NCBI GenBank assembly: GCA_050123335.1
Contig: JASFHH010000005.1
Coordinates: 792-64,791 of the forward strand
DNA length: 64,000 nucleotides
From: Gammaproteobacteria bacterium
Lineage (GTDB): Bacteria > Pseudomonadota > Gammaproteobacteria > UBA12402
Reading direction: 5' to 3'
Within the stretch, counting starts at the first letter, position 1, and every line of letters begins with the position of its first letter. Under the pieces are notes generated by a model. It was not told the DNA's origin. It saw nothing but the letters and a program-made list of their open reading frames with translations, and ran no database searches. Made by a program: the position numbers and the translations under genes. This document shows positions 18,987-32,417 of this stretch, piece after piece.

Positions 18987-20102
18987 TTAATGCCATCTAT
19001 ATCTAAATTTTAAATTATTGAATTTATTATATCCAATATAATTCATATGCTGAAGCCGTCCCACAAGAATGCCTGGGGCAATATTCAATTTTTTGGCAAA
19101 TTCAATAATCAGGGCGGTACTCAGTTTATCATTTTTCTTTAACCATTCATTTAAGCGTGATGAAGGGATTAAAGTTTCTGCTGCATATTTATCTGCTTCT
19201 AATTCTTCGGAAGATTTATTTACAGTCTTGTTATTTATTTCAACAAAAAATTCTTTTTTGCTGTGTTTAATTATGTGACCTATTTCATGAAAGATTGTGA
19301 ACCATAAAATGTCGGCTGTTTTACCTCTTAAGCTTAATTGAACTAATGCTTTTTCAGGATTCAACCAGCAAGAAGCTCCATAAATAGGAACTTTTGGAAA
19401 AGGCTTTATAAAGACAATGGCGATTCCACAATCAGCACAAATATTCTTTAATTTAGGAACAAATATTTCTGGATCTTTTTCTTTAGTAAGCGCGCGCATT
19501 TGATCGAGTGATGAAATTAATTTTTCTTTATCAAATAGTTTGCATTGAATTTTTTCTCCTTCAAGCTCTCCCTTTCTTAACCAAACGCTAATAGCACCAA
19601 TATCTGATTTTAGATTCATGGCTTTCCTAAATGCAAGCCGTCGCCGTGTCCATCCTTGTTCCCATTGCTCTGGTGTGGCTACTCCAAAAAAATTTAATAT
19701 GGCAATCATTTGCTCCGCAACAGTATCGCCACATTTAAGAAGCCAACCTCTTTTTTTCATTTCTTTGATTGGAAACTGCTTAAGCCAATCTTTTTCTGCA
19801 GTTAAACGTTCTAACTCTTTTTGCTGGGCAAGGTAAGCACGGTAATTGGCTTCTCTTTGATTCCAAAATGCAGCAGGAGTACCAAGTGCTCTTTCCAACT
19901 GAATAGCTGTCTCTGAAGTAATTGCGGCTTTACCTTTGATAATTTCGTTGATAGTTTTTAATGGGCGACCAATACGTTCTGCAAGCGCTACTTGAGTCAT
20001 ACCTCGTTCTTCAAGAATTTCAAGCAATGTTGCTCCAGGGGCAGAAACGATGTCTGGTTGGTAAAAAAGTTTACTTTTTTCAATCATGGGTATCCTCCAC
20101 AT
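18987..20102 (-). CDS. HigA-like XRE-family HTH antitoxin fused to ImmA/IrrE-family zinc metallopeptidase (COG2856)
   Basis: N-terminal HTH (LLEILEERGMTQVALAERIG…) and a C-terminal HEXXH motif (FHEIGHIIKH). Likely start at MIEKSKLF. Confidence 0.7.
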   Translation of the reverse strand: MWRIPMIEKSKLFYQPDIVSAPGATLLEILEERGMTQVALAERIGRPLKTINEIIKGKAAITSETAIQLERALGTPAAFWNQREANYRAYLAQQKELERLTAEKDWLKQFPIKEMKKRGWLLKCGDTVAEQMIAILNFFGVATPEQWEQGWTRRRLAFRKAMNLKSDIGAISVWLRKGELEGEKIQCKLFDKEKLISSLDQMRALTKEKDPEIFVPKLKNICADCGIAIVFIKPFPKVPIYGASCWLNPEKALVQLSLRGKTADILWFTIFHEIGHIIKHSKKEFFVEINNKTVNKSSEELEADKYAAETLIPSSRLNEWLKKNDKLSTALIIEFAKKLNIAPGILVGRLQHMNYIGYNKFNNLKFRYRWH

Positions 20103-20415
20103 TTATTATTTTTATAGCGTTAACTAAATTCCAATTTATTCCACCACCATCTTTTTTATTTATACTCTTATTTGTTGGTTCAAATATCAATCTTAATGGA
20201 TGTTCCAAATCAAGAGAAAGCAACCCTTTTTTATCACCTATTAGTTCGTGGCAACGACCTGGTAATGTCTTAAAAGCTTCTAAATTAGGAGCAGCTTGTA
20301 AATCATCAAGGCGCGCTCTAATCTTTCGGGCACAATTTTTACCATAAGTTTTAAGCAACTTTTTTTCTGAGTTACAGATTTTCTGAAGCTTTTTATTTTT
20401 AAAGGTGATCTCCAT
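20080..20415 (-). CDS. higB: HigB-like toxin (RelE/ParE superfamily, plasmid-maintenance killer type)
   Basis: …ARKIRARLDDLQAAPNLEAFKTLPGRCHELIGDKKGLLSLDLEHPLRLIFE… is the HigB/RelE-like pattern. Sits upstream of and overlapping the HTH gene. Confidence 0.7.
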   Translation of the reverse strand: MEITFKNKKLQKICNSEKKLLKTYGKNCARKIRARLDDLQAAPNLEAFKTLPGRCHELIGDKKGLLSLDLEHPLRLIFEPTNKSINKKDGGGINWNLVNAIKIINVEDTHD

Positions 20416-20548
20416 GTTATAAATGCGTCTACCCTTATTTTTATTAATAATTATTAAAAAGTGTAGTATAGATTTCGTGGCAAGTCAAATTATATTTAAC
20501 CTTTTGGGTTAAATATAATTTAGAAAATTCAACGTTTTGGGAATTATT

Positions 20549-20577
20549 TGGTGGAGGCGGCGGGAATCGAATCTGCG
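20549..20577 (-). other. Partial copy of the tmRNA (ssrA) 3' end: att-site remnant of an integrated element
   Basis: tggtggaggcggcgggaatcgaatctgcg vs the authentic ssrA 3' end at 32061 (tggtggaggcggcgggaatcgaacccgcg). Preceded by ttttgggaattattt, shared with the 21686 copy. Confidence 0.6.
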
Positions 20578-20628
20578 TTATAGCTTATTGATTTTTGAAC
20601 CGTGGAAACAATCATACAATTCAAATTT

Positions 20629-20652
20629 AACCCCATCGAATTCGATGGGGTT
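20629..20652. repeat. GAATTC-centred hairpin, copy 1 of 3 (others at 21807..21830 and 22059..22082)
   Basis: aaccccatcgaattcgatggggtt / aatcccgtcgaattcgacgggatt / aaacccatcgaattcgatgggttt. The stem changes are compensatory. Copies 1 and 3 are preceded by caaatttaa. Confidence 0.5.
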
Positions 20653-20675
20653 AGAATACTACTTTTATTATAAAG

Positions 20676-21582
20676 AATCCGGTTTTTCCAACGATTTTTT
20701 CTTTTCTGTGGCAAGCCGACGTTCAACTTTTTTAACATCTTCAGCAGCAGAGCGTTCTTCAGGACAAATGCCTCTTTCTAATAATGTTTTGCGAACAGCT
20801 GCGTTGTTAGTAATATGTTCTTGCGAGACGGCAGCTTCTGTTTTCATGTTATGTTCTTTTGCATTAAAAATAGTAATTTCTGTAGCAAAATCTTTAGCCT
20901 TTAAAATGATTGTGGGAGCAAAATCAGCTAAAGGGCGATTTTTTGCTGAAGGTCATTCATGACCTTCAGCCCTTACGGGGCGCACTTCGTGCGACAAAAA
21001 TCTGCAGTCCTGCAGATTTTTTGGAACATTCCATTGATCTTTCATTTCTTGAGTTGTTTTTCTAAAAAGTGAAAAATTACCTTTATCTCGAATAAGAGCA
21101 AAATTTTTATTTCCCCCGGTTTGTTCATAAATAGTTTTTGATAATTCTTTTTCGGTAGTAGCTAATTTTTTACGTGCGGAAACACGTTCAATCTCTAAGA
21201 GCTTTTGTTCAATTAATTCTGTTCGGCGGGTTTGTATGGCGAAGTAAGTTTGCGCAAAGGCAATTTCTGATTTCTTTGGATCGCCATTTTGTGCAATTAG
21301 ATAGCAAGCGTAGCGGGTAAGCATGATGTCGTTGACTTCGCGTTGGCTACCAGAACCCAGTTTGACCATTTTCCTGACGTCAGGAAAATGGTCTACGATA
21401 TTGTGTCCAGAAGTTGTACATGATGCTTTTGCTTTGACTATAACATTAAGAAAATTCTCCCATTTTTCATAACCAAGCAATTGTTGCAATTCGCGTGCTA
21501 GCCAAAATTCCACGTCATCTTCAGTTTTTTGAGCATGTTCTTCAAAGTTGTTTGTTAACGCATAAATAAAATCAGTTTTCAT
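20676..21582 (-). pseudogene. dinD: dinD-like gene disrupted by a ~180-bp palindrome-rich insertion (20880..21060)
   Basis: The N-terminal 175 aa match DinD (…WLARELQQLLGYEKWENFLNVIVKAKASCTTSGHNIVDHFPDVRKMVKLGSGSQREVNDIMLTRYACYLIAQNGDPKKSEIAFAQTYFAIQTRR…). The frame then runs into gaaggtcattcatgaccttc / cgcacttcgtgcg / tctgcagtcctgcaga palindromes, and the C-terminal coding segment resumes out of frame. Confidence 0.6.
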
Positions 21583-21685
21583 TGTTAAACCTCTATTTTT
21601 AATTTTTAAAATTATCAAACGGTAGATTATCGCAAATAAAAAAATTAAAAACTAGCGTAAAAACTACGGGGTTTTGGGAATTATT

Positions 21686-21708
21686 TGGGCGGTGGGAATC
21701 GAACCCGC
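21686..21708 (-). other. Second partial tmRNA 3'-end copy (att remnant)
   Basis: gggcggtgggaatcgaacccgcg, preceded by the same ttttgggaattattt as the 20549 copy. Confidence 0.55.
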
Positions 21709-22469
21709 GTTGTAATTTGTTGATTTTGGCGGTACAGCTATTGATACTACTAAAATGAGAAGTCAGATAGTCTGAACTGATCGGGAATTCCGAATAGTTG
21801 AAATCTAATCCCGTCGAATTCGACGGGATTAGAATACCGCGTGGGGACAATTTGTTCCTTGGTAGCTTGATCAATTGTAGACAAATTGTCGACGGTTTGC
21901 ACTGATTAAATTTAAGCCAAACGTTTTGCCGACGTCGTCAAAATGGTATAAATTATTGAGTAGCAGTTATAAAGAAATTCTTTACAACTGATCTCATTCA
22001 TCTGAAGTTGCGAAACAACCTGTTTCGCAATTACGAAAAAATTGTACAGTTCAAATTTAAACCCATCGAATTCGATGGGTTTAAAATCAGTATTATTAAG
22101 TTGGTTCCAAAATACCCAAAAACTTAATCGTATTGCGATTTTGCAACTTGCTAAACTCAGAAAACAGAAGGTGTTTTAAAAAACCGAAAATACTTATTTA
22201 TTGAAAGTGATTATTAATTATTAATAAATTTAGTGAAATAAAGGATTGTATTTTCTAAATATTGAGGTAGAATAATCGGCCACTGGGAGATTTGTTCAAA
22301 ATCTCACCTGCCAAGAATAATAAAATCATAAAATAAGGTTCAGGCATTTCTCTTGAATTGCTGTCAGATATGGATATTCCTTTTGAACATGGAGCGCATT
22401 GGTCGCTTATTTTCTTAATAGAGTTAATTAGTAATCTAAAAAATTTAATAGTTTTAGGAGAAGAAATAT

Positions 22470-23195
22470 ATGTTTATTGTTGATGAAAAGCAAAAAAAAG
22501 AATGGAGAGGTATACAGTGTGTATTAACTTCGCCTATTGCGTTGTCCTATTTAATTTTGATGTTATTCGCGGTTTTTTTGGCAAATTTGTTTAATGATAT
22601 AAGAGTAATTCACTTAATGTGTGTAGCTGCCTGTTCAATTTCCGCTGGGTTTTTTGGTAGTAAATGGCAAGAGATTGTTAAACAAAGCGAAAGTGATGAA
22701 ACTATACTTTCGCGAGGACAAATGGCGATACGACGATTAAATAACTTATTATCAAATCTGAAAACAACTATTGACACAATTGAAAAATTTCTGGAATTTC
22801 AAATTGAAAATAGCGATAAAAACGCTTTAAAAATATGGTTAGAAAGCTTAGTAAGACAAGTAATTATGATACAAAAAGAAGGCGTAAGTGCTATTGAGGA
22901 TTGGGGTGATTTAATGCCAGATTATAATGTTAAAAAACATGTTGATCTTATAGGAGAATTACGTAGTGATGTTTTAAAAATTAAGAAAGAAAAAGAAGAA
23001 ATAGAAAAGAATAAAGTAATTGAGTCAGAAGAAAAAGAAAATAAAATAAAATATTTAACGAAAGAGTTAGAGATAAAAACAGCAGAGTTACAAGAAGAAC
23101 AACAAAAATTTAACGCATCGCTTTTTGGAGGATTAGATTTTGGTACAATTGATAAGAAAAGTTATTCTGAGCTGCTTTTAGATCTTAAACAATGA
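22470..23195 (+). CDS. Membrane-anchored coiled-coil protein (241 aa), first gene of a putative three-gene Abi-like module
   Basis: Two predicted N-terminal TM helices followed by a Glu/Lys-rich coiled coil. Layout is reminiscent of 2TM effector-associated domains. Confidence 0.45.
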   Translation: MFIVDEKQKKEWRGIQCVLTSPIALSYLILMLFAVFLANLFNDIRVIHLMCVAACSISAGFFGSKWQEIVKQSESDETILSRGQMAIRRLNNLLSNLKTTIDTIEKFLEFQIENSDKNALKIWLESLVRQVIMIQKEGVSAIEDWGDLMPDYNVKKHVDLIGELRSDVLKIKKEKEEIEKNKVIESEEKENKIKYLTKELEIKTAELQEEQQKFNASLFGGLDFGTIDKKSYSELLLDLKQ

Positions 23196-25392: not shown

Positions 25393-26309
25393 ATGATTAA
25401 AAATGTTCGCAAAAAAAACATCATTACTTAGCAAGAGTATACCTAAATGGTTTTTGTGATCAGAATAATATGGTTTGGTCATATCATAAAGATGATCTTT
25501 CAAAAATACATTGTCAAACACCAGACAATACAGCAATTGAAAAAAATCTTTATGCTGTGGATGGAATTGATGTTAATGTGTTTGAAGACTTTTTATCTGA
25601 CCAAATAGAAAGTCCAGCAGTAAATGCATTAAAGGAATTACAAAAAGGTCAACTGCCATCAAATAATGATAGACTTGTTTTAGCAAAATTTTTTGGCTTC
25701 ATGTTAGTACGAACTCCGTCATATAAGGCTTCTAATGAACAGCCATTTGAGCGTGAATCTAATATGTTACTAAAATTATACGTACAACATAAAGAGTGTT
25801 TTCAAAATTGGTGTAATAAATATGAAGGAATCAATAATCAACCTATAGCTAAAGATATTGAGCGACTAAGGCAAGAAATCTTAAATGGAAAATACATACT
25901 AAAACCACATCATAATTTTAGTCTTAATACTATAGGAAAATTGGGTTTAAGCATTGATTCTTATTTATTAAATATGAAATGGATAATGATAAAAGCACCC
26001 AAAGGTTATTTCTTTTTAACTTCTGACAATCCTGTTATTATCACAAATCCAGAGTGCAATGGATTTTATTCAACAGGATTAGGACAAGAAAACACTAGAG
26101 TTTTTATCCCAATTTCAAAGGAAATTGGTCTTCTTATGGTTAATTTAGATATTGATGGTTTTGACAATCAATCAATTGATAATAATAGTGAGATTGTAGG
26201 GCATATGAATAAAGCAATCATTCTGTTTGCATCCAAATTTATATTTAGTCATAAAAAAAACGACGACATTACACAATTAATAAAAAAAGTAACTGAAAAT
26301 AAAAATTGA
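25393..26309 (+). pseudogene. DUF4238-family protein, frameshifted in an A8 homopolymer near the 5' end
   Basis: ATG at 25393 (MIKNVRKK…) hits a stop after 12 codons. One extra or missing A in aaaaaaaa (25411-25418) restores …KKHHYLARVYLNGF…, the DUF4238 N-terminal HHY-x-x-x-YL motif. The downstream body contains the DUF4238 hallmark TSDNPV. Confidence 0.6.
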
Positions 26310-26479
26310 AATTATGTGTTGTAGACAGGGCAAAGTCGTTTTTCATCCTGTGTATGCGATTTTAAAAGCGCATTTACTTTTTTACATGTTTATAAAAGAT
26401 ATTAGTGTGACCTATACAGTTTAATTGAGCGGCGACTACTTAACGTTTGGCTTAGTGTTGCATGGATAAAGGCTTTTGG

Positions 26480-26940
26480 TTATTTACTTTAATTAGTTGC
26501 CCCCCAGACTGCCCCCCCCCTGAAATTGGCTTTGTTTTGCAAAAAACAAAGGTAGTTTATTCTATTTGCATTTTTCTTATCAATCTGAGATACTAAAAAC
26601 GTGCTAGTAACACACATGCAAAGCGGTAAAACTGCGTCCGATAACCGCGGTTTTTTTGTACCTAAATGTCGGGCGTTCGTTGGAATACAATACCCTTGGG
26701 AAATACAGCGAGCCACGCTTTGCAGTGGTTACTAACGCCTGACACCAATTAAATTTGGGATTATTAGTAAAATTGCAAAGGAGTAAAATCATGTCACATA
26801 TTTCAAAAAAATTATCTTTATTTATCAATAAGTTAATTGATGCAGAATAGTAAAAGTCTTACACAACAATCAGATGTTTTTCGGTGGTTAAAACATGCTC
26901 AATCATCCATAATTACTATGCGCAAGCTTTCTGAGGAGGA
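26480..26940 (+). other. Structured non-coding leader with poly-C tracts, long-range inverted repeats and a 19-codon ORF with strong SD
   Basis: gttgccccccagactgccccccccc (C6 and C9 tracts). The 22-nt arm gtgctagtaacacacatgcaaagcgg (26601-26626) is complementary to ccacgctttgcagtggttactaac (26712-26735). Hairpin ctttgttttgcaaaaaacaaag. aaggag-N7-ATG at 26791 gives MSHISKKLSLFINKLIDAE*. Locally GC-richer than its surroundings. Confidence 0.3.
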
Positions 26941-26942
26941 AA

Positions 26943-28289
26943 TTGATGACTGCGAAAATACATCAACCAGCGTGTGAATTGACTGAAGGCTGTTGGGTTG
27001 ATTTTAGAGAAATGGTGCAACAAGTTGAACCGGAATTGTTTGACATCATTGAGAAAATAAACCCAAATAAAGAGCACAAATTAATTAAAGCCAGATATTT
27101 ATATGGCGAGCAAATTACTGATCTTGGTACCATTTGTGTTCCAGATAAATTTGGCCGTTTAGTACGTTTAGATAACGCTAATGTCTCCAGTGAGTTGCAA
27201 GATCAATTGGGCTATTGTCCTACGCCGCTAGTTTTGCAATTAAAAAATGCTGGTGAGGTTTTTGTTGAAACAGAAGATCGCATCGCGCCATTAAATATTT
27301 TTATGCCGGGGGATATGTACGGGTTATATGAAATTTTAGTTCCGCTTTCTGGTTGTCCAGCCGTACCTTGTTGGAGTATTACATCCGGAGGCAGATCGGT
27401 ATTTTTAGCATCTAAAATTACCGATGCAATCGGTCACAAAAAATTGCGTAAGGAATTTGGTGTATCACCAGTTCCACCGAAAAACATCAAAGATCAATGG
27501 GCAACTATGAAAACTATTGCTAACCGAGGCAGAAAAGATAATCCTTGGTCATCAGAAATATTAATTTTTACCAAAGAATGGTTTACCGAAAAAGATGACG
27601 ATATTAATTGGATGAGATTTCAAAACTACTTGATGAAAAAAGCGTGGTGGCAATCTCGAAGTACTCGCGCACAAATTGAATATAGTATTATGTGGGAATC
27701 TTTTGCTAAAGCAGTGTGTGCTAGAAATTTAAAACCTAGTTCTTATATTGTTGATACAGTAAAACATTTAATGCTATTAACTGCTGGCACAACTCCCGGA
27801 TTTAAAGCGATTGATACCAGTGAAAACATCATGCCGTCAAAGATTGTAGAAAAAGCATATACGGACATTTACGGTTTAAAAGATTATGCGGCCATTATTA
27901 TGCATCCTCACGTAACTAAATTAAATAGTCATGATGAGCAAGTTTATTACTCGATGGCCTATCCTACTTTAATTTCCGGCACGCCGTCTATTCGTAAAAA
28001 CACAAACACCATGACTGAAATTCGTGACGTGCAGACATTGATGAAAATGCTTGAAAAAATATTATCTTCTTATGAAGATCGTGTTCATAATTCAATGAAA
28101 AACGTTAAGTTTGAATATTTTCATAGTGATGAAGATCGTTTTGGGGAAATCCTAAATAGCCATAGCATAACTAAAACTGATGCGGCAATCTTAAATATTT
28201 TAAACGAACGTTTTCCTGGTAAAAAATTTCCTTCATACGGTTCATTTTTCAGAGGGTGCATTAGAATAAGCAGGAAGAATGTTGGTTAA
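26943..28289 (+). CDS. Hypothetical protein (448 aa), convergent partner of the rSAM-Nudix gene
   Basis: Long ORF with no recognisable motifs. Its 3' end overlaps the 3' end of the opposite-strand rSAM-Nudix gene by 48 nt. Confidence 0.5.
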   Translation: MMTAKIHQPACELTEGCWVDFREMVQQVEPELFDIIEKINPNKEHKLIKARYLYGEQITDLGTICVPDKFGRLVRLDNANVSSELQDQLGYCPTPLVLQLKNAGEVFVETEDRIAPLNIFMPGDMYGLYEILVPLSGCPAVPCWSITSGGRSVFLASKITDAIGHKKLRKEFGVSPVPPKNIKDQWATMKTIANRGRKDNPWSSEILIFTKEWFTEKDDDINWMRFQNYLMKKAWWQSRSTRAQIEYSIMWESFAKAVCARNLKPSSYIVDTVKHLMLLTAGTTPGFKAIDTSENIMPSKIVEKAYTDIYGLKDYAAIIMHPHVTKLNSHDEQVYYSMAYPTLISGTPSIRKNTNTMTEIRDVQTLMKMLEKILSSYEDRVHNSMKNVKFEYFHSDEDRFGEILNSHSITKTDAAILNILNERFPGKKFPSYGSFFRGCIRISRKNVG

Positions 28290-29978
28290 AAACATTTTTT
28301 TAGTTGTAGGAAATAATTGTAACGTTAACAAATTCTCTGGCGAAAAATATTTGTATTCTGCAATTTCTCGCTTGTCAATTTTGTATTTGTTTTTACAGCC
28401 ATTGTTTTCTGCAATCCACCAATGCAACTCATCTACATCGTAATCAGCATTAGATGTGCCTATTTTTTTGATGGGAATTACCGCTAAACCAAGCTCCTCA
28501 TGAGCTTCTCTGATAACTGCTGCTTCCTCTGTTTCACCTTGCTCAATTTTGCCATGAATGGGTGCCCAATGATCTTTGTATGGCTTTTTATTTTGTTTTA
28601 CCAACAGATATTTTCCGTTTTGTATAATAACTATAACTACACCCGAACGTTTTTTATCGGATACACTTGCCACATTAACTATGTCACCTTGCATATAACG
28701 TTCATATTGTTTTTTAGTTAGTGGAATTTGCATAATTTTGTTAGCATTCATACAAGCTTTATCATTGGATTTTTCATTGGTTAAATAGACATGCGCTTTA
28801 GTAAAATTAAAATTGGCGTTTTGCTTTAGTAAAGCTACGATGTTTGCAAAACTAATGTTATTTTCCTTATCGATGCAAAATTGACAGTTTTTTGGAATGT
28901 TTTTTTGAAAATCTTGGATGTGGCTATTATTTTTCAATAAAGTTGCTATAGATTGAGTTTTATCATTTATTGTGCCTATTTTAGCTTTTGGCATTATACC
29001 ATTGCGAGCTAGGCAACATAATTGTAATGATAAATCGGCTAATATGATAAATCTTAATCGTGATATCCAGCAGAAATTAAAATCATCTTTTGGTTTGAAA
29101 GATATTCCATATTGTTTTTCAATAATAAAATCTCTTTTATCTTTGATGTTTTGTTTGAATATATTTATTTGATTTTCAACAAATGGAATGATTTCAGGGT
29201 GATCATCGTAAACTTTTCTACAAATATTTTTTCTAATAGCAATCCAGTTAGCCCCCACATCATACATATCACACATAAATTTACTGATGTTGCGATAATT
29301 TTCCGGAAGCATAATAAAGGTAGCACCAATAAATAATTCTTGTTCTCTATTAAATTTAATAGCCTCAACATGAACCGTTTTTATTTTCTTAATCAAGTTT
29401 TCGTAATTATGTGCCTTATCATTTGATTTATGAACTTGATATCTGGAATTATTATCAAAAGAATCAACACTAATTCGTAAATGATGAACGTAGTTAGCAA
29501 TAGTTTTAATAATATTGCCTTGTAATAAATCACCATTCGTTTCGACAGTAATTTTTAATTTTAAATCGGCTAAATATTTTATAATTTCGATAATTTTAGG
29601 ATGATTTAGAGGATCACCACCACCAGTTAATCTAACACTTTTTCCACCTAAATTTTTGAAATCATCAAAGATAGATTTAAGTTGGTCTAATGGCAATGTT
29701 GAATTTAACTTGGAATTTAATTTCTTTGAAAAACACATGATGCAATTATTTGAACAGTTACTAGTAACATCAATATCTAATCTTATAGGCGATAAAGTTT
29801 GATTAAAATATGCGCTTTTTATCGCTTTTATCCACTCATCTAATTGCTCAGGAAACATCTTAGCGTGATTTTGGTAAAAAACATATGTCTTAGCATTACA
29901 TATAGCGCATATTGCATTCCATTTGCCGTATTGTCGATTAACAAGAATATTTTCGTGGTAATTGAAAACCATCTTCAT
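28242..29978 (-). CDS. Radical SAM (SPASM/twitch-like) enzyme fused to a C-terminal Nudix hydrolase domain
   Basis: CX3CX2C motif (CSNNCIMC) with a downstream GGGDPL SAM-binding motif. Additional Cys-rich region (CWISRL…LCCLARN…CQFC). Nudix box GKIEQGETEEAAVIREAHEELGL at aa ~470-495. An N-terminal CxxC pair is also present. Confidence 0.75.
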   Translation of the reverse strand: MKMVFNYHENILVNRQYGKWNAICAICNAKTYVFYQNHAKMFPEQLDEWIKAIKSAYFNQTLSPIRLDIDVTSNCSNNCIMCFSKKLNSKLNSTLPLDQLKSIFDDFKNLGGKSVRLTGGGDPLNHPKIIEIIKYLADLKLKITVETNGDLLQGNIIKTIANYVHHLRISVDSFDNNSRYQVHKSNDKAHNYENLIKKIKTVHVEAIKFNREQELFIGATFIMLPENYRNISKFMCDMYDVGANWIAIRKNICRKVYDDHPEIIPFVENQINIFKQNIKDKRDFIIEKQYGISFKPKDDFNFCWISRLRFIILADLSLQLCCLARNGIMPKAKIGTINDKTQSIATLLKNNSHIQDFQKNIPKNCQFCIDKENNISFANIVALLKQNANFNFTKAHVYLTNEKSNDKACMNANKIMQIPLTKKQYERYMQGDIVNVASVSDKKRSGVVIVIIQNGKYLLVKQNKKPYKDHWAPIHGKIEQGETEEAAVIREAHEELGLAVIPIKKIGTSNADYDVDELHWWIAENNGCKNKYKIDKREIAEYKYFSPENLLTLQLFPTTKKMFLTNILPAYSNAPSEK

Positions 29979-32060: not shown

Positions 32061-32417
32061 TGGTGGAGGCGGCGGGAATCGAACCCGCGTCCGCGAACTC
32101 TCCGCCATCGGTTCTACATGCGTAGCTAATCATTAAATTTCATTATTTGCTGCCCGATTAGCAGGGATCACAAATAACTAGCCTAAGTTAAATTTAGCGG
32201 TATTGCCTTAGGCGCACTTTACCGCGAGCTTATGAAATATGACCATCAGATTCAAGCGCATAAGCACACTTGGGTGATGGGCTGTGCCTGTTTAAGCGGC
32301 GACAGCGTAAAGTTCGTCGTTTGCGACTACTTTGTTGCAGCATGATTTACGAGGTTAAGCTACGTCCTCGGCATGCCCCTTTGGTTTTGCAATCCACGTC
32401 GAAGCCGGGTCGCCCCC
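32061..32417 (-). ncRNA. ssrA: tmRNA (ssrA)
   Basis: The 5' end GGGGGCGACCCGGCTTCGACGTGGATTGC… pairs with the 3' end …GCGGGTTCGATTCCCGCCGCCTCCACCA. Internal tag reading frame GCAAACGACGAACTTTACGCTGTCGCCGCTTAA gives ANDELYAVAA*. Confidence 0.85.

Follow-up and report, generated by a model that had tools for sequence, protein, structure and literature searches.

Which function resides in the roughly 450 nt of DNA that precede the gene for a 448-aa protein in the gammaproteobacterial contig analyzed here? The stretch in question comprises positions 26480-26940 of a DNA segment of 64 kb with a GC content of 33% (33.4%), which is called the window in the following. The original prediction had described it as a GC-richer stretch without credible open reading frames (ORFs), which contains two poly-C tracts, a long-range inverted repeat, a tight hairpin and a small ORF preceded by a Shine-Dalgarno (SD) sequence. 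All of these features are present in the sequence, with small corrections to their description. Judged from the comparison with related loci, they are parts of two unrelated pieces of DNA, namely, 26500-26551 and 26566-26945. The second piece is probably a complete, though divergent, regulatory cassette of the sRNA-Xcc1 type with the architecture known from P1/P7 c4, P4 CI and Gifsy-1 IsrK. This would account for nearly every odd feature of the 450-nt gap, and it sets the functional cassette apart from junction sequence.

The sRNA-Xcc1-like RNA and its leader module

The central component of the cassette, all elements of which are encoded on the plus strand, is an RNA of about 80 nt (26667-26747) that is predicted to form a three-way junction. 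An Rfam scan of positions 25500-28500 in E-value mode yielded a match of the family sRNA-Xcc1 (RF02221) to positions 26668-26751, which spans the full model (1-87) with a score of 48.4 bits and an E-value of 7.5e-7. The cmscan alignment covers every helix of the consensus fold, i.e., the closing stem, hairpin 1 with its internal loop, and hairpin 2, and the isolated RNA (26667-26750) folds into the model structure with -28.7 kcal/mol. The closing stem consists of 10 bp (26667-26676 and 26735-26744) and is directly followed by a CCA tail (26745-26747). A small 3' hairpin (CCAA/TTGG, 26745-26758), which is not part of the Rfam model, starts at this CC(A/C) tail. The core of hairpin 1, which lies within 26667-26747, reads AAUACAAUACC in the family and is followed by GGGAA; it is present as AATACAATACC at 26684-26694, the sole exact match in the window. 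Two segments, which are called b' and a', are located in the loop of hairpin 2 (CGCTTTGCA, 26716-26724) and in the 3' linker (GTTACTAA, 26728-26735), respectively. The original prediction had named the assignment to a known Rfam element as an outcome that would count against it, and the full-length, sub-threshold match to RF02221 is essentially such an assignment. At the same time, its proposal of a cis-regulatory RNA holds, as the stretch encodes a cis-linked regulatory RNA with a small SD-driven ORF at the regulated position. The alternative proposal of an antitoxin-like RNA is apt as far as the antisense logic is concerned. The C4 family (RF01695) had no match in 25500-28500 at E-values up to 10 and isrK (RF01394) had none in the window, while the genuine copies in the Stx (Shiga toxin) phage locus L023 score 77.4 bits and 61.8 bits, respectively. 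The Rfam scans also yielded no match of any riboswitch family at the leader. The elevated GC content (36.4% in 26480-26940 versus 33.4% in the window) was reported correctly, and the excess resides in the RNA core, with 47% for 26601-26750 and 52% for 26667-26747. The only ORFs that overlap the stretch otherwise are mechanical predictions of 44-75 aa, of which no protein-library search was made.

The RNA is preceded by a leader module (26601-26657). It starts with a hairpin (GTG/CAC, 26601-26613), the loop of which exposes the segment a1 (TAGTAAC, 26605-26611), and continues with the segment b1 (TGCAAAGCG, 26617-26625) and a predicted intrinsic terminator. The terminator is composed of a stem (CTGCG, 26632-26636, and CGCGG, 26646-26650) with the loop TCCGATAAC and a run of seven T residues (26651-26657); a terminator consensus scan did not flag it, and its loop exceeds the limit of 8 nt of that scan. 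A hidden Markov model (HMM) was built from the upstream modules of 39 other family members, excluding the window and the sister locus L004. Its single match in the 64 kb is located at 26601-26659 (E-value 2.9e-7). Therefore, two independent modules support the homology of the cassette to the sRNA-Xcc1 family. Only 9 nt separate the U-run of the leader terminator from the RNA, which is not followed by a U-run and has neither a promoter nor a terminator of its own in the window. A candidate promoter for the whole transcript (TTGCAT-N17-GATACT) is found at 26566-26594, and 6 nt separate the end of its -10 hexamer from the first leader hairpin. The same geometry is seen for the strong promoters of the TTGACA-N17-TATAAT type in the family loci L019, L023, L046 and L138.

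The inverted repeat of 22 nt that had been noticed between 26601-26626 and 26712-26735 is real, albeit interrupted, and its perfect parts comprise 9 nt (b1, 26617-26625, with CGCTTTGCA, 26716-26724) and 7 nt (TAGTAAC, 26605-26611, with GTTACTA, 26728-26734). The predicted long-range duplex has an energy of -29.9 kcal/mol (RNAduplex), a value that was reached by none of 1000 shuffled targets, and the fold of 26590-26760 has a z-score of -3.9. The pairing looks functional, as had been supposed, but it is better described as pairing of an antisense loop and linker with an upstream target mimic than as one long stem. In fact, the repeat is only one of two complementarities of the hairpin 2 loop and the 3' linker, as judged from the sequence, namely, that of b' and a' with a1 and b1.

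The second complementarity is found downstream of the RNA, where the segments a2 (TTAGTAA, 26764-26770) and b2 (TGCAAAG, 26774-26780) precede the small ORF. The latter overlaps the SD sequence AAGGAG (26778-26783). The predicted duplex of 26712-26738 with the a2/b2 region has an energy of -17.0 kcal/mol. The words TAGTAA and TGCAAAG are common to the upstream sites, the complement of the RNA and the downstream sites. The window thus contains a two-segment arrangement, in which a' and b' have copies upstream (a1 b1) and downstream (a2 b2), the latter at the ribosome-binding site (RBS) of the first ORF. This ORF was described accurately, with an SD sequence 7 nt ahead of the ATG at 26791. It comprises 19 codons (MSHISKKLSLFINKLIDAE, 26791-26850, stop codon TAG at 26848-26850) and starts 46 nt after the closing stem. 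It is followed by an untranslated gap (26851-26945) with a second SD sequence (GAGGAGG, 26933-26939), in which a consensus scan flagged no promoter on the plus strand, and by the 448-aa gene (26946-28289).

The protein encoded by this gene has no match in Pfam or PADLOC and belongs to a rare family, for which only 48 homologues were found, two of them named as proteins of gammaproteobacterial metagenome-assembled genomes. As an identical protein is assigned to a metagenome-assembled genome, the contig itself is probably of this origin. Its N-terminal domain resembles cyclic-nucleotide-binding (CNB) domains. Several other explanations of the locus were considered and dropped. The 19-aa peptide has no significant similarity in blastp-short searches that would mark it as an N-terminal stub of an antirepressor. 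The idea of a structure that couples the small ORF to the SD sequence of the 448-aa gene was given up, because no fold is conserved between the window and its sister locus. A bridge RNA or seek RNA of the IS110/IS1111 type was discarded, since the 448-aa protein has no transposase domain and no paper ties Xcc1 to seekRNA, and the msr/msd RNA of a retron was discarded in view of the missing reverse transcriptase.

Conservation in a sister locus

Related loci were collected with an alignment of the 17 closest sequences of the 448-aa family. One of them is the metagenomic sister locus L004, the 448-aa protein of which shares 92% identity with that of the window. Synonymous third positions in the 448-aa gene, which are 69% identical, served as a neutral yardstick. 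The Xcc1 RNA (92%) and the leader module (90%) are much more similar than that, and the gap before the 448-aa gene is 86% identical, followed by the promoter block (26560-26600, 78%), in which both hexamers are identical, and the small ORF (75%). The RNA modules are probably under purifying selection. The hairpin 1 core recurs in L004 at 1069-1079, and the three substitutions in helices preserve base pairing (CCC/GGG to CCUC/GAGG, one U:G to U:A, and one U:A to U:G). Both loci have retained all six a and b sites in intact and matching form. The counterpart of the small ORF in L004 has 20 codons and differs by an in-frame indel of 3 nt.

The alignment with L004 starts only at about 26547, and upstream of the promoter the identity drops to 45%. 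Therefore, the window and L004 are unrelated there, and the original assignment of the poly-C tracts and the AT-rich hairpin to the same element as the RNA is not borne out, because both lie in the unrelated part and neither recurs in other family members.

Comparative anatomy of the RNA family

Members of the family were gathered via the Rfam consensus and a scan for the core motif AATACAANACCCGNAAGGGGAA, and 93 unique members from phages and plasmids were used to analyze anatomy and covariation. The members collected stem from records of a plasmid collection that belong to four genera (two of the records are chromosome-sized), from Stx phages, Aaphi23 and phages of Acinetobacter, Moraxella and Pasteurella, and from 120 IMG/VR stretches. 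Bona fide members score 69-86 bits with RF02221. A blastn search with the window leader as query gave no matches among plasmids and phages. In each inspected annotated member with a gene directly after the RNA, the latter lies on the strand of this gene and about 40 nt ahead of its start codon. In 78 of 82 members the start codon follows 31-66 nt after the closing stem (median about 45 nt), and the value of 46 nt in the window is typical of the family geometry.

The sites on both sides co-vary with the RNA of the same locus. A perfect complement of b' of at least 7 nt is present downstream in 58% of the cognate pairs versus 2.4% of the non-cognate pairs, and upstream in 62% versus 3.3%. For a' the respective values are 51% versus 3.5% downstream and 53% versus 2.8% upstream. 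In 65 of the 93 members a word of at least 6 nt is common to the b' complement, the upstream region and the downstream region, and these words are of 56 different kinds. A coarser test of covariation gave a Mann-Whitney p of about 1e-37. The family sites a1 and b1 are located 60-130 nt upstream of the RNA, and a2 and b2 lie just upstream of the SD sequence or overlap it.

The upstream module, which is absent from the Rfam model, also has a constant order in the family, i.e., a hairpin with a1 in its loop, b1, GCGG, a terminator hairpin with the conserved loop CCCGUCAG, and a U-run. When terminator stems were counted per sequence, a stem of at least 4 bp was found before the U-run in 40 of 41 members, and the stems are of many types. 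RNAalifold predicted no pairs for a MAFFT alignment of the upstream modules, owing to short stems that do not line up with one another. At the 3' side, CC is present within 1 nt after the closing stem in 81 of 93 members, and the small 3' hairpin in 76 of 93. In the upstream modules of members L023-L146 both the terminator loop CCCG(U/A)(C/A)AG and the GCGG after b1 are highly conserved, and a CGG/CCG pairing of the two could form a pseudoknot or a switch between antiterminator and terminator. In modules of the L024 type (e.g., 2400-2497), GCGG-N4-CCGC competes with the terminator stem CCGC...GCGG.

Among 73 downstream ORFs, the Pfam census revealed KilA-N (18), P22_AR_C (17), Bro-N (13), AntA (11), Rha (8), P22_AR_N (7) and ORF6N (6) domains, so that by predicted domain the usual cargo is antirepressor-type proteins. 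The Q antiterminator of the Stx phage P13374 is another cargo, and the toxin SymE has been described as the cargo in a Xanthomonas integron cassette (bioRxiv 10.1101/2025.06.18.660453). In L046 an ORF of 20 codons occupies the regulated position and overlaps the start of an ORF of 226 aa. Together with the 19-codon ORF of the window this suggests that a short gating ORF is a recurring variant of the cassette.

Some further observations concern the phage members. Several phages carry tandem pairs of Xcc1 RNAs (L126, at 7042 and 7285; L093, at 5096 and 5312; L074, with two copies; and L019, 3070-3180). The first cassette of such a pair has no ORF, and a new promoter and leader module follow directly after it. 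Five tandem copies about 380 nt apart have been reported for Xylella fastidiosa Temecula1 (PMC12189769), and the tandem cassettes of the phages may be related to them. The "antB2" of several Stx2 phages, which is annotated to encode 48 aa, coincides with the Xcc1 RNA at 2486-2569 (L023 2451-2597, phage P13374), just upstream of the Q gene. This "antirepressor antB2" is probably a mis-annotated RNA gene.

Proposed mechanism and alternative explanations

From the covariation we infer the following mechanism. The promoter TTGCAT-N17-GATACT would start a transcript at about 26601, the first 57 nt or so of which would form the leader module and display a1 and b1. Many transcripts would probably end at the intrinsic terminator as a short RNA. 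Read-through would yield the junction RNA (26667-26747), with b' and a' complementary to a1/b1 as well as to a2/b2. By analogy to the known systems, it would be cut from the transcript. A closing stem followed by CCA resembles a substrate of RNase P, and together with the frequent CC after the closing stem of family members this hints at processing by RNase P. The excised RNA could then pair with a2 and b2 and block translation of the small ORF. Without this translation, the 448-aa gene, which starts 95 nt further downstream, would be expressed at a lower level, probably via transcriptional polarity, as for c4, icd and ant. The copy a1/b1, either on the same transcript or on the short terminated RNA, would compete for the antisense RNA and thereby set the balance between the ON and OFF states. 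What the analysis shows is that both RNA modules are homologous to the family, that the sites have the family geometry and that they co-vary in three ways. The three steps of RNA processing, translational repression and coupling to the 448-aa gene are inferred, and control of the 448-aa gene by the cassette is the weakest of them.

Several points weigh against this model. RF02221 scores 48.4 bits in the window and 40.6 bits in L004, both below the gathering score of 53, and a scan at the gathering threshold omits the window RNA. This score is an operational cut-off and not a biological feature, and by its sequence and fold the window RNA appears as a divergent member below the threshold. The candidate promoter (26566-26594) is weak, with a consensus match of 7/12, and a scan for the sigma-70 consensus did not flag it. 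The b2 duplex is modest by itself, as 15 of 1000 shuffles were as good as its -17 kcal/mol. The small ORF and its L004 counterpart are 75% identical, which is near the neutral level of 69%. The cargo is no antirepressor, and the 448-aa gene has a strong SD sequence of its own, 95 nt after the small ORF. Lastly, the cassette is present in a single sister locus, L004, and absent from the other loci of the 448-aa family that were examined. It therefore seems that cassette and gene were combined solely in the lineage that comprises the window and L004.

Some of these points would be expected of a vestigial cassette, i.e., a relic of a phage antirepressor locus that lost its ant gene, retained a stub of 19 codons, and perhaps only provides a promoter from which the 448-aa gene is transcribed through. 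The missing canonical cargo, the near-neutral divergence of the small ORF, the lack of a leader at the other examined homologues and the SD sequence of the 448-aa gene all fit a relic. The evidence against a relic consists of RNA modules that are 90-92% identical between the window and L004 at 69% identity of synonymous sites, six intact sites, pair-preserving substitutions in the helices, a small ORF with a frame that survived an indel of 3 nt, and a conserved gap (86%) before the 448-aa gene. Decay of the cassette is thus unlikely. Published work regards sRNA-Xcc1, which was originally reported from Xanthomonas, as a trans-acting sRNA that is under the control of HrpG/HrpX and has predicted targets in the host or in plants (PMC12189769 and the listing of PMC2996969). 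In that case the RNA of about 80 nt would be a free-standing regulator of the Hfq type that acts on unlinked host mRNAs, and its position would be incidental. This is very hard to reconcile with a loop and a linker that co-vary with sites on both sides of the same locus (51-62% of cognate versus 2-3% of non-cognate pairs), with the fixed distance from the RNA to the start codon, and with an RNA that lacks a promoter and a terminator of its own in the window. A trans-acting function of the window RNA is therefore regarded as highly improbable.

The same low probability is assigned to the proposal that slipped-strand changes of the poly-C tracts switch the leader and the 448-aa gene. Both tracts (C6, 26500-26505, and C9, 26512-26520, plus strand) exist; they are separated by 6 nt (AGACTG) and not by 10 nt, as had been stated. 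No other C run of at least 6 nt exists in the 64-kb window, in which about 0.003 runs of C9 or longer would be expected and no G run of at least 6 nt is present, and they lie 46-66 nt upstream of the -35 hexamer, which makes phase variation conceivable. However, the tracts of contingency loci, the length of which differs between strains or reads, reside in an ORF or in the spacer between the -35 and -10 hexamers, and the C6 and C9 tracts lie in non-coding DNA outside both. They are also missing in L004, which has the same promoter and leader behind unrelated sequence, and in all other family members inspected, so that phase variation via poly-C is unsupported. A different kind of switch would be a leader that senses a ligand or a protein, with a factor that binds the hairpin 1 core AAUACAAUACCCGAAAGGGGAAUA and decides between termination and read-through, while antisense pairing would be secondary. 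Members of the family hardly differ in hairpin 1 but vary freely in hairpin 2 and the linker, which points to a constraint beyond target pairing. Such a sensor can hardly replace the antisense model, as no riboswitch family matched and the three-way covariation would be left unexplained, and it is given very little credence. It would be compatible with the antisense model as an added layer, e.g., a docking or processing signal.

The junction sequence and the genomic island

The poly-C tracts are outside of the cassette and near the right edge of an insertion. The upstream flank of L004 is collinear with positions 21641-21949 of the window, and the homology resumes at about 26547. This indicates that about 4.6 kb of the window (from 21950 to about 26546) are inserted relative to L004. 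The insertion comprises an ORF of 241 aa without assigned function, an AbiJ-like (Abi_C) gene, a second such ORF of 209 aa and a DUF4238 gene. The C6 and C9 tracts are found at its right end, together with the AT-rich perfect palindrome CTTTGTTTTGCAAAAAACAAAG (26530-26551, arms of 9 bp and a loop of 4 nt), which is the tight hairpin that had been noted before. The poly-C tracts are best described as unexplained junction sequence. The palindrome, which lies 14 nt upstream of the -35 hexamer, is not conserved, and its place in L004 is taken by another one, TTTTGCCGACGTC[A/G]GCAAAA. The palindrome of the window might serve as an operator or belong to the insertion junction. A direct repeat of 16 nt is found at 26447-26462 (TTGGCTTAGTGTTGCA) and 26526-26541 (TTGGCTTTGTTTTGCA), with the copies 79 nt apart, and one half of the palindrome ahead of the promoter is made up by the second copy. 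In L004, the palindrome peculiar to that locus occurs twice, at a distance of about 185 nt. The repeats of the window and the palindrome copies of L004 could be operators for locus-specific repressors.

The cassette region belongs to an island that is bounded by a gene for transfer-messenger RNA (tmRNA, 32061-32417, minus strand) and repeats of the tmRNA 3' end (20549-20573 and 21687-21709, both minus strand). The two partial repeats point to a composite island that arose through several integration events in succession. None of the ORFs tested revealed an integrase domain, and an ORF of 291 aa beside the tmRNA gene has no Pfam match. A tmRNA gene or a fragment of it is also present near the homologue of the 448-aa gene in L004 (500-526) and in L011. 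A GC-cored palindrome that resembles repetitive extragenic palindromic (REP) sequences (AACCCATCGAATTCGATGGGTT and variants) recurs around the island junctions of the window (20626-20657, 21806-21835 and 22056-22086) and in L004 (182-217 and 646-673). The far end of the island harbors a gene with a Bro-N domain (20953-21618, minus strand), i.e., of the antirepressor type. A second cassette upstream of this gene was considered and dropped, because a scan of 20400-22600 with Rfam in E-value mode gave no match of Xcc1, C4 or IsrK. Just outside the island repeat, a gene with HTH_3 and Peptidase_M78 domains (IrrE-like) lies beside a weak HigB-like toxin match (18987-20415, minus strand). Elsewhere in the window, a thiamine pyrophosphate (TPP) riboswitch is located at 62585-62682 (minus strand), with a score of 67.6 bits that is above the gathering score.

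Comparison with known RNA systems

The Rfam family and the logic of phage immunity RNAs have been known, and the new element is this sub-threshold member with its unusual cargo. The window RNA shares with RF02221 the same three-way junction, the core AAUACAAUACC...GGGAA and the CC(A/C) tail, and, beyond the Rfam model, the terminated upstream module, the layout of the a and b sites and the distance to the start codon. It differs from the family in the shortened apical stem of hairpin 1, the score of 48.4 versus 53, and the distance of only 9 nt between the U-run of the leader and the closing stem. A further difference is the cargo, an ORF of 19 codons and a CNB-like protein of 448 aa, in place of an antirepressor, Q or, in Xanthomonas integron cassettes, SymE. 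Slightly favored is a wider reading, based on strong comparative evidence, in which the whole sRNA-Xcc1 family is a third lineage of immunity RNAs of the P1-c4/P4-CI type. Its members would be tripartite switches of a mimic, a processed antisense RNA and a target, with an upstream terminated RNA and a 3' hairpin that have not been modelled before. They would gate genes for antirepressors, Q and toxins in phages, plasmids and integron cassettes of proteobacteria. In the window, this type of switch would have been recruited to control a cyclic-nucleotide-binding-like effector beside a viperin-like radical S-adenosylmethionine (SAM)/NUDIX enzyme in a tmRNA-linked defence island. This reading, with tripartite covariation, upstream RNA and antirepressor cargo, was not found in the searchable literature, which treats Xcc1 as a trans-acting, virulence-linked sRNA. 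It would offer a concrete mechanism for an orphan Rfam family that is annotated in Xylella, E. coli, Haemophilus, Aeromonas and APSE phages, namely, programmable antisense pairing at two sites with an upstream decoy and a leaky terminator. An RNA switch would hold the 448-aa gene tightly in the off state, in the way in which phages silence their antirepressors and toxins, which would fit a costly defence effector. The natural specificities, at least 56 in number, would represent a ready-made library of orthogonal pairs of RNA repressors and targets.

One of the most similar characterized systems is c4 of P1/P7 (RF01695). Its immI region has the order a1 b1, c4 with a' b', a2 b2 at the RBS of icd, and ant, and the c4 mechanism was reportedly worked out in studies published in 1990, 1992 and 1995. 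The window element resembles c4 in its closing stem, two hairpins and CC tail, in the location of b' in the hairpin 2 loop and of a' in the 3' linker, and in the two target copies, one upstream and one at the SD sequence of a small first ORF that gates the downstream gene, as is proposed for the window. In contrast, its closing stem has 10 bp versus 17 bp in C4, hairpin 1 is a conserved internal-loop element where C4 has a UUCG hairpin, and RF01695 does not match. In the IsrK/C4 region of the Stx phage P13374, b' is the hairpin 2 loop with its target CAATCAAGG at the SD sequence, and a' is the 3' linker with TTGCTAC in IsrK and downstream. The topology is the same as in Xcc1. The components c4, icd and ant have been described (PMC8201110).

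For Gifsy-1, an IsrK read-through transcript, the coupling of orf45 and anrP, and the analogy to seqA and seqC of P4 CI have been reported (PMC4825925). The IsrK/STnc1160/orf45-anrP locus (RF01394) and, according to the proposed mechanism, the window share a promoter-proximal short RNA that ends at a leaky terminator and has sequence in common with the target, and a read-through transcript with a processed RNA and a small upstream ORF that gates the downstream gene (PMC4825925). Sequence drift, as seen for the small ORF of the window, has also been noted for orf45 (PMC12197685). The two loci differ in that orf45 overlaps anrP, while the small ORF of the window is 95 nt away from the next gene, and the window leader has no RF01394 match, so that the resemblance is one of architecture only. 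The features of P4 CI considered here are in part general background. CI (seqA/seqB/seqC) is likewise an antisense RNA that is cut from its own leader transcript and has complementary sites on both sides, and the outcome is premature termination tied to translation of a small ORF (PMC4825925). The window differs from it by the intrinsic terminator inside the leader module, and the likeness is one of layout. The predicted pairing geometry of RNA and SD sequence would also suit a type I toxin-antitoxin system, provided that the 19-aa peptide or the 448-aa protein were toxic, and the same RNA precedes the symE toxin gene in Xanthomonas. With its predicted pairing and architecture the window element would work like C4, and it is placed outside of the C4 family, within sRNA-Xcc1.

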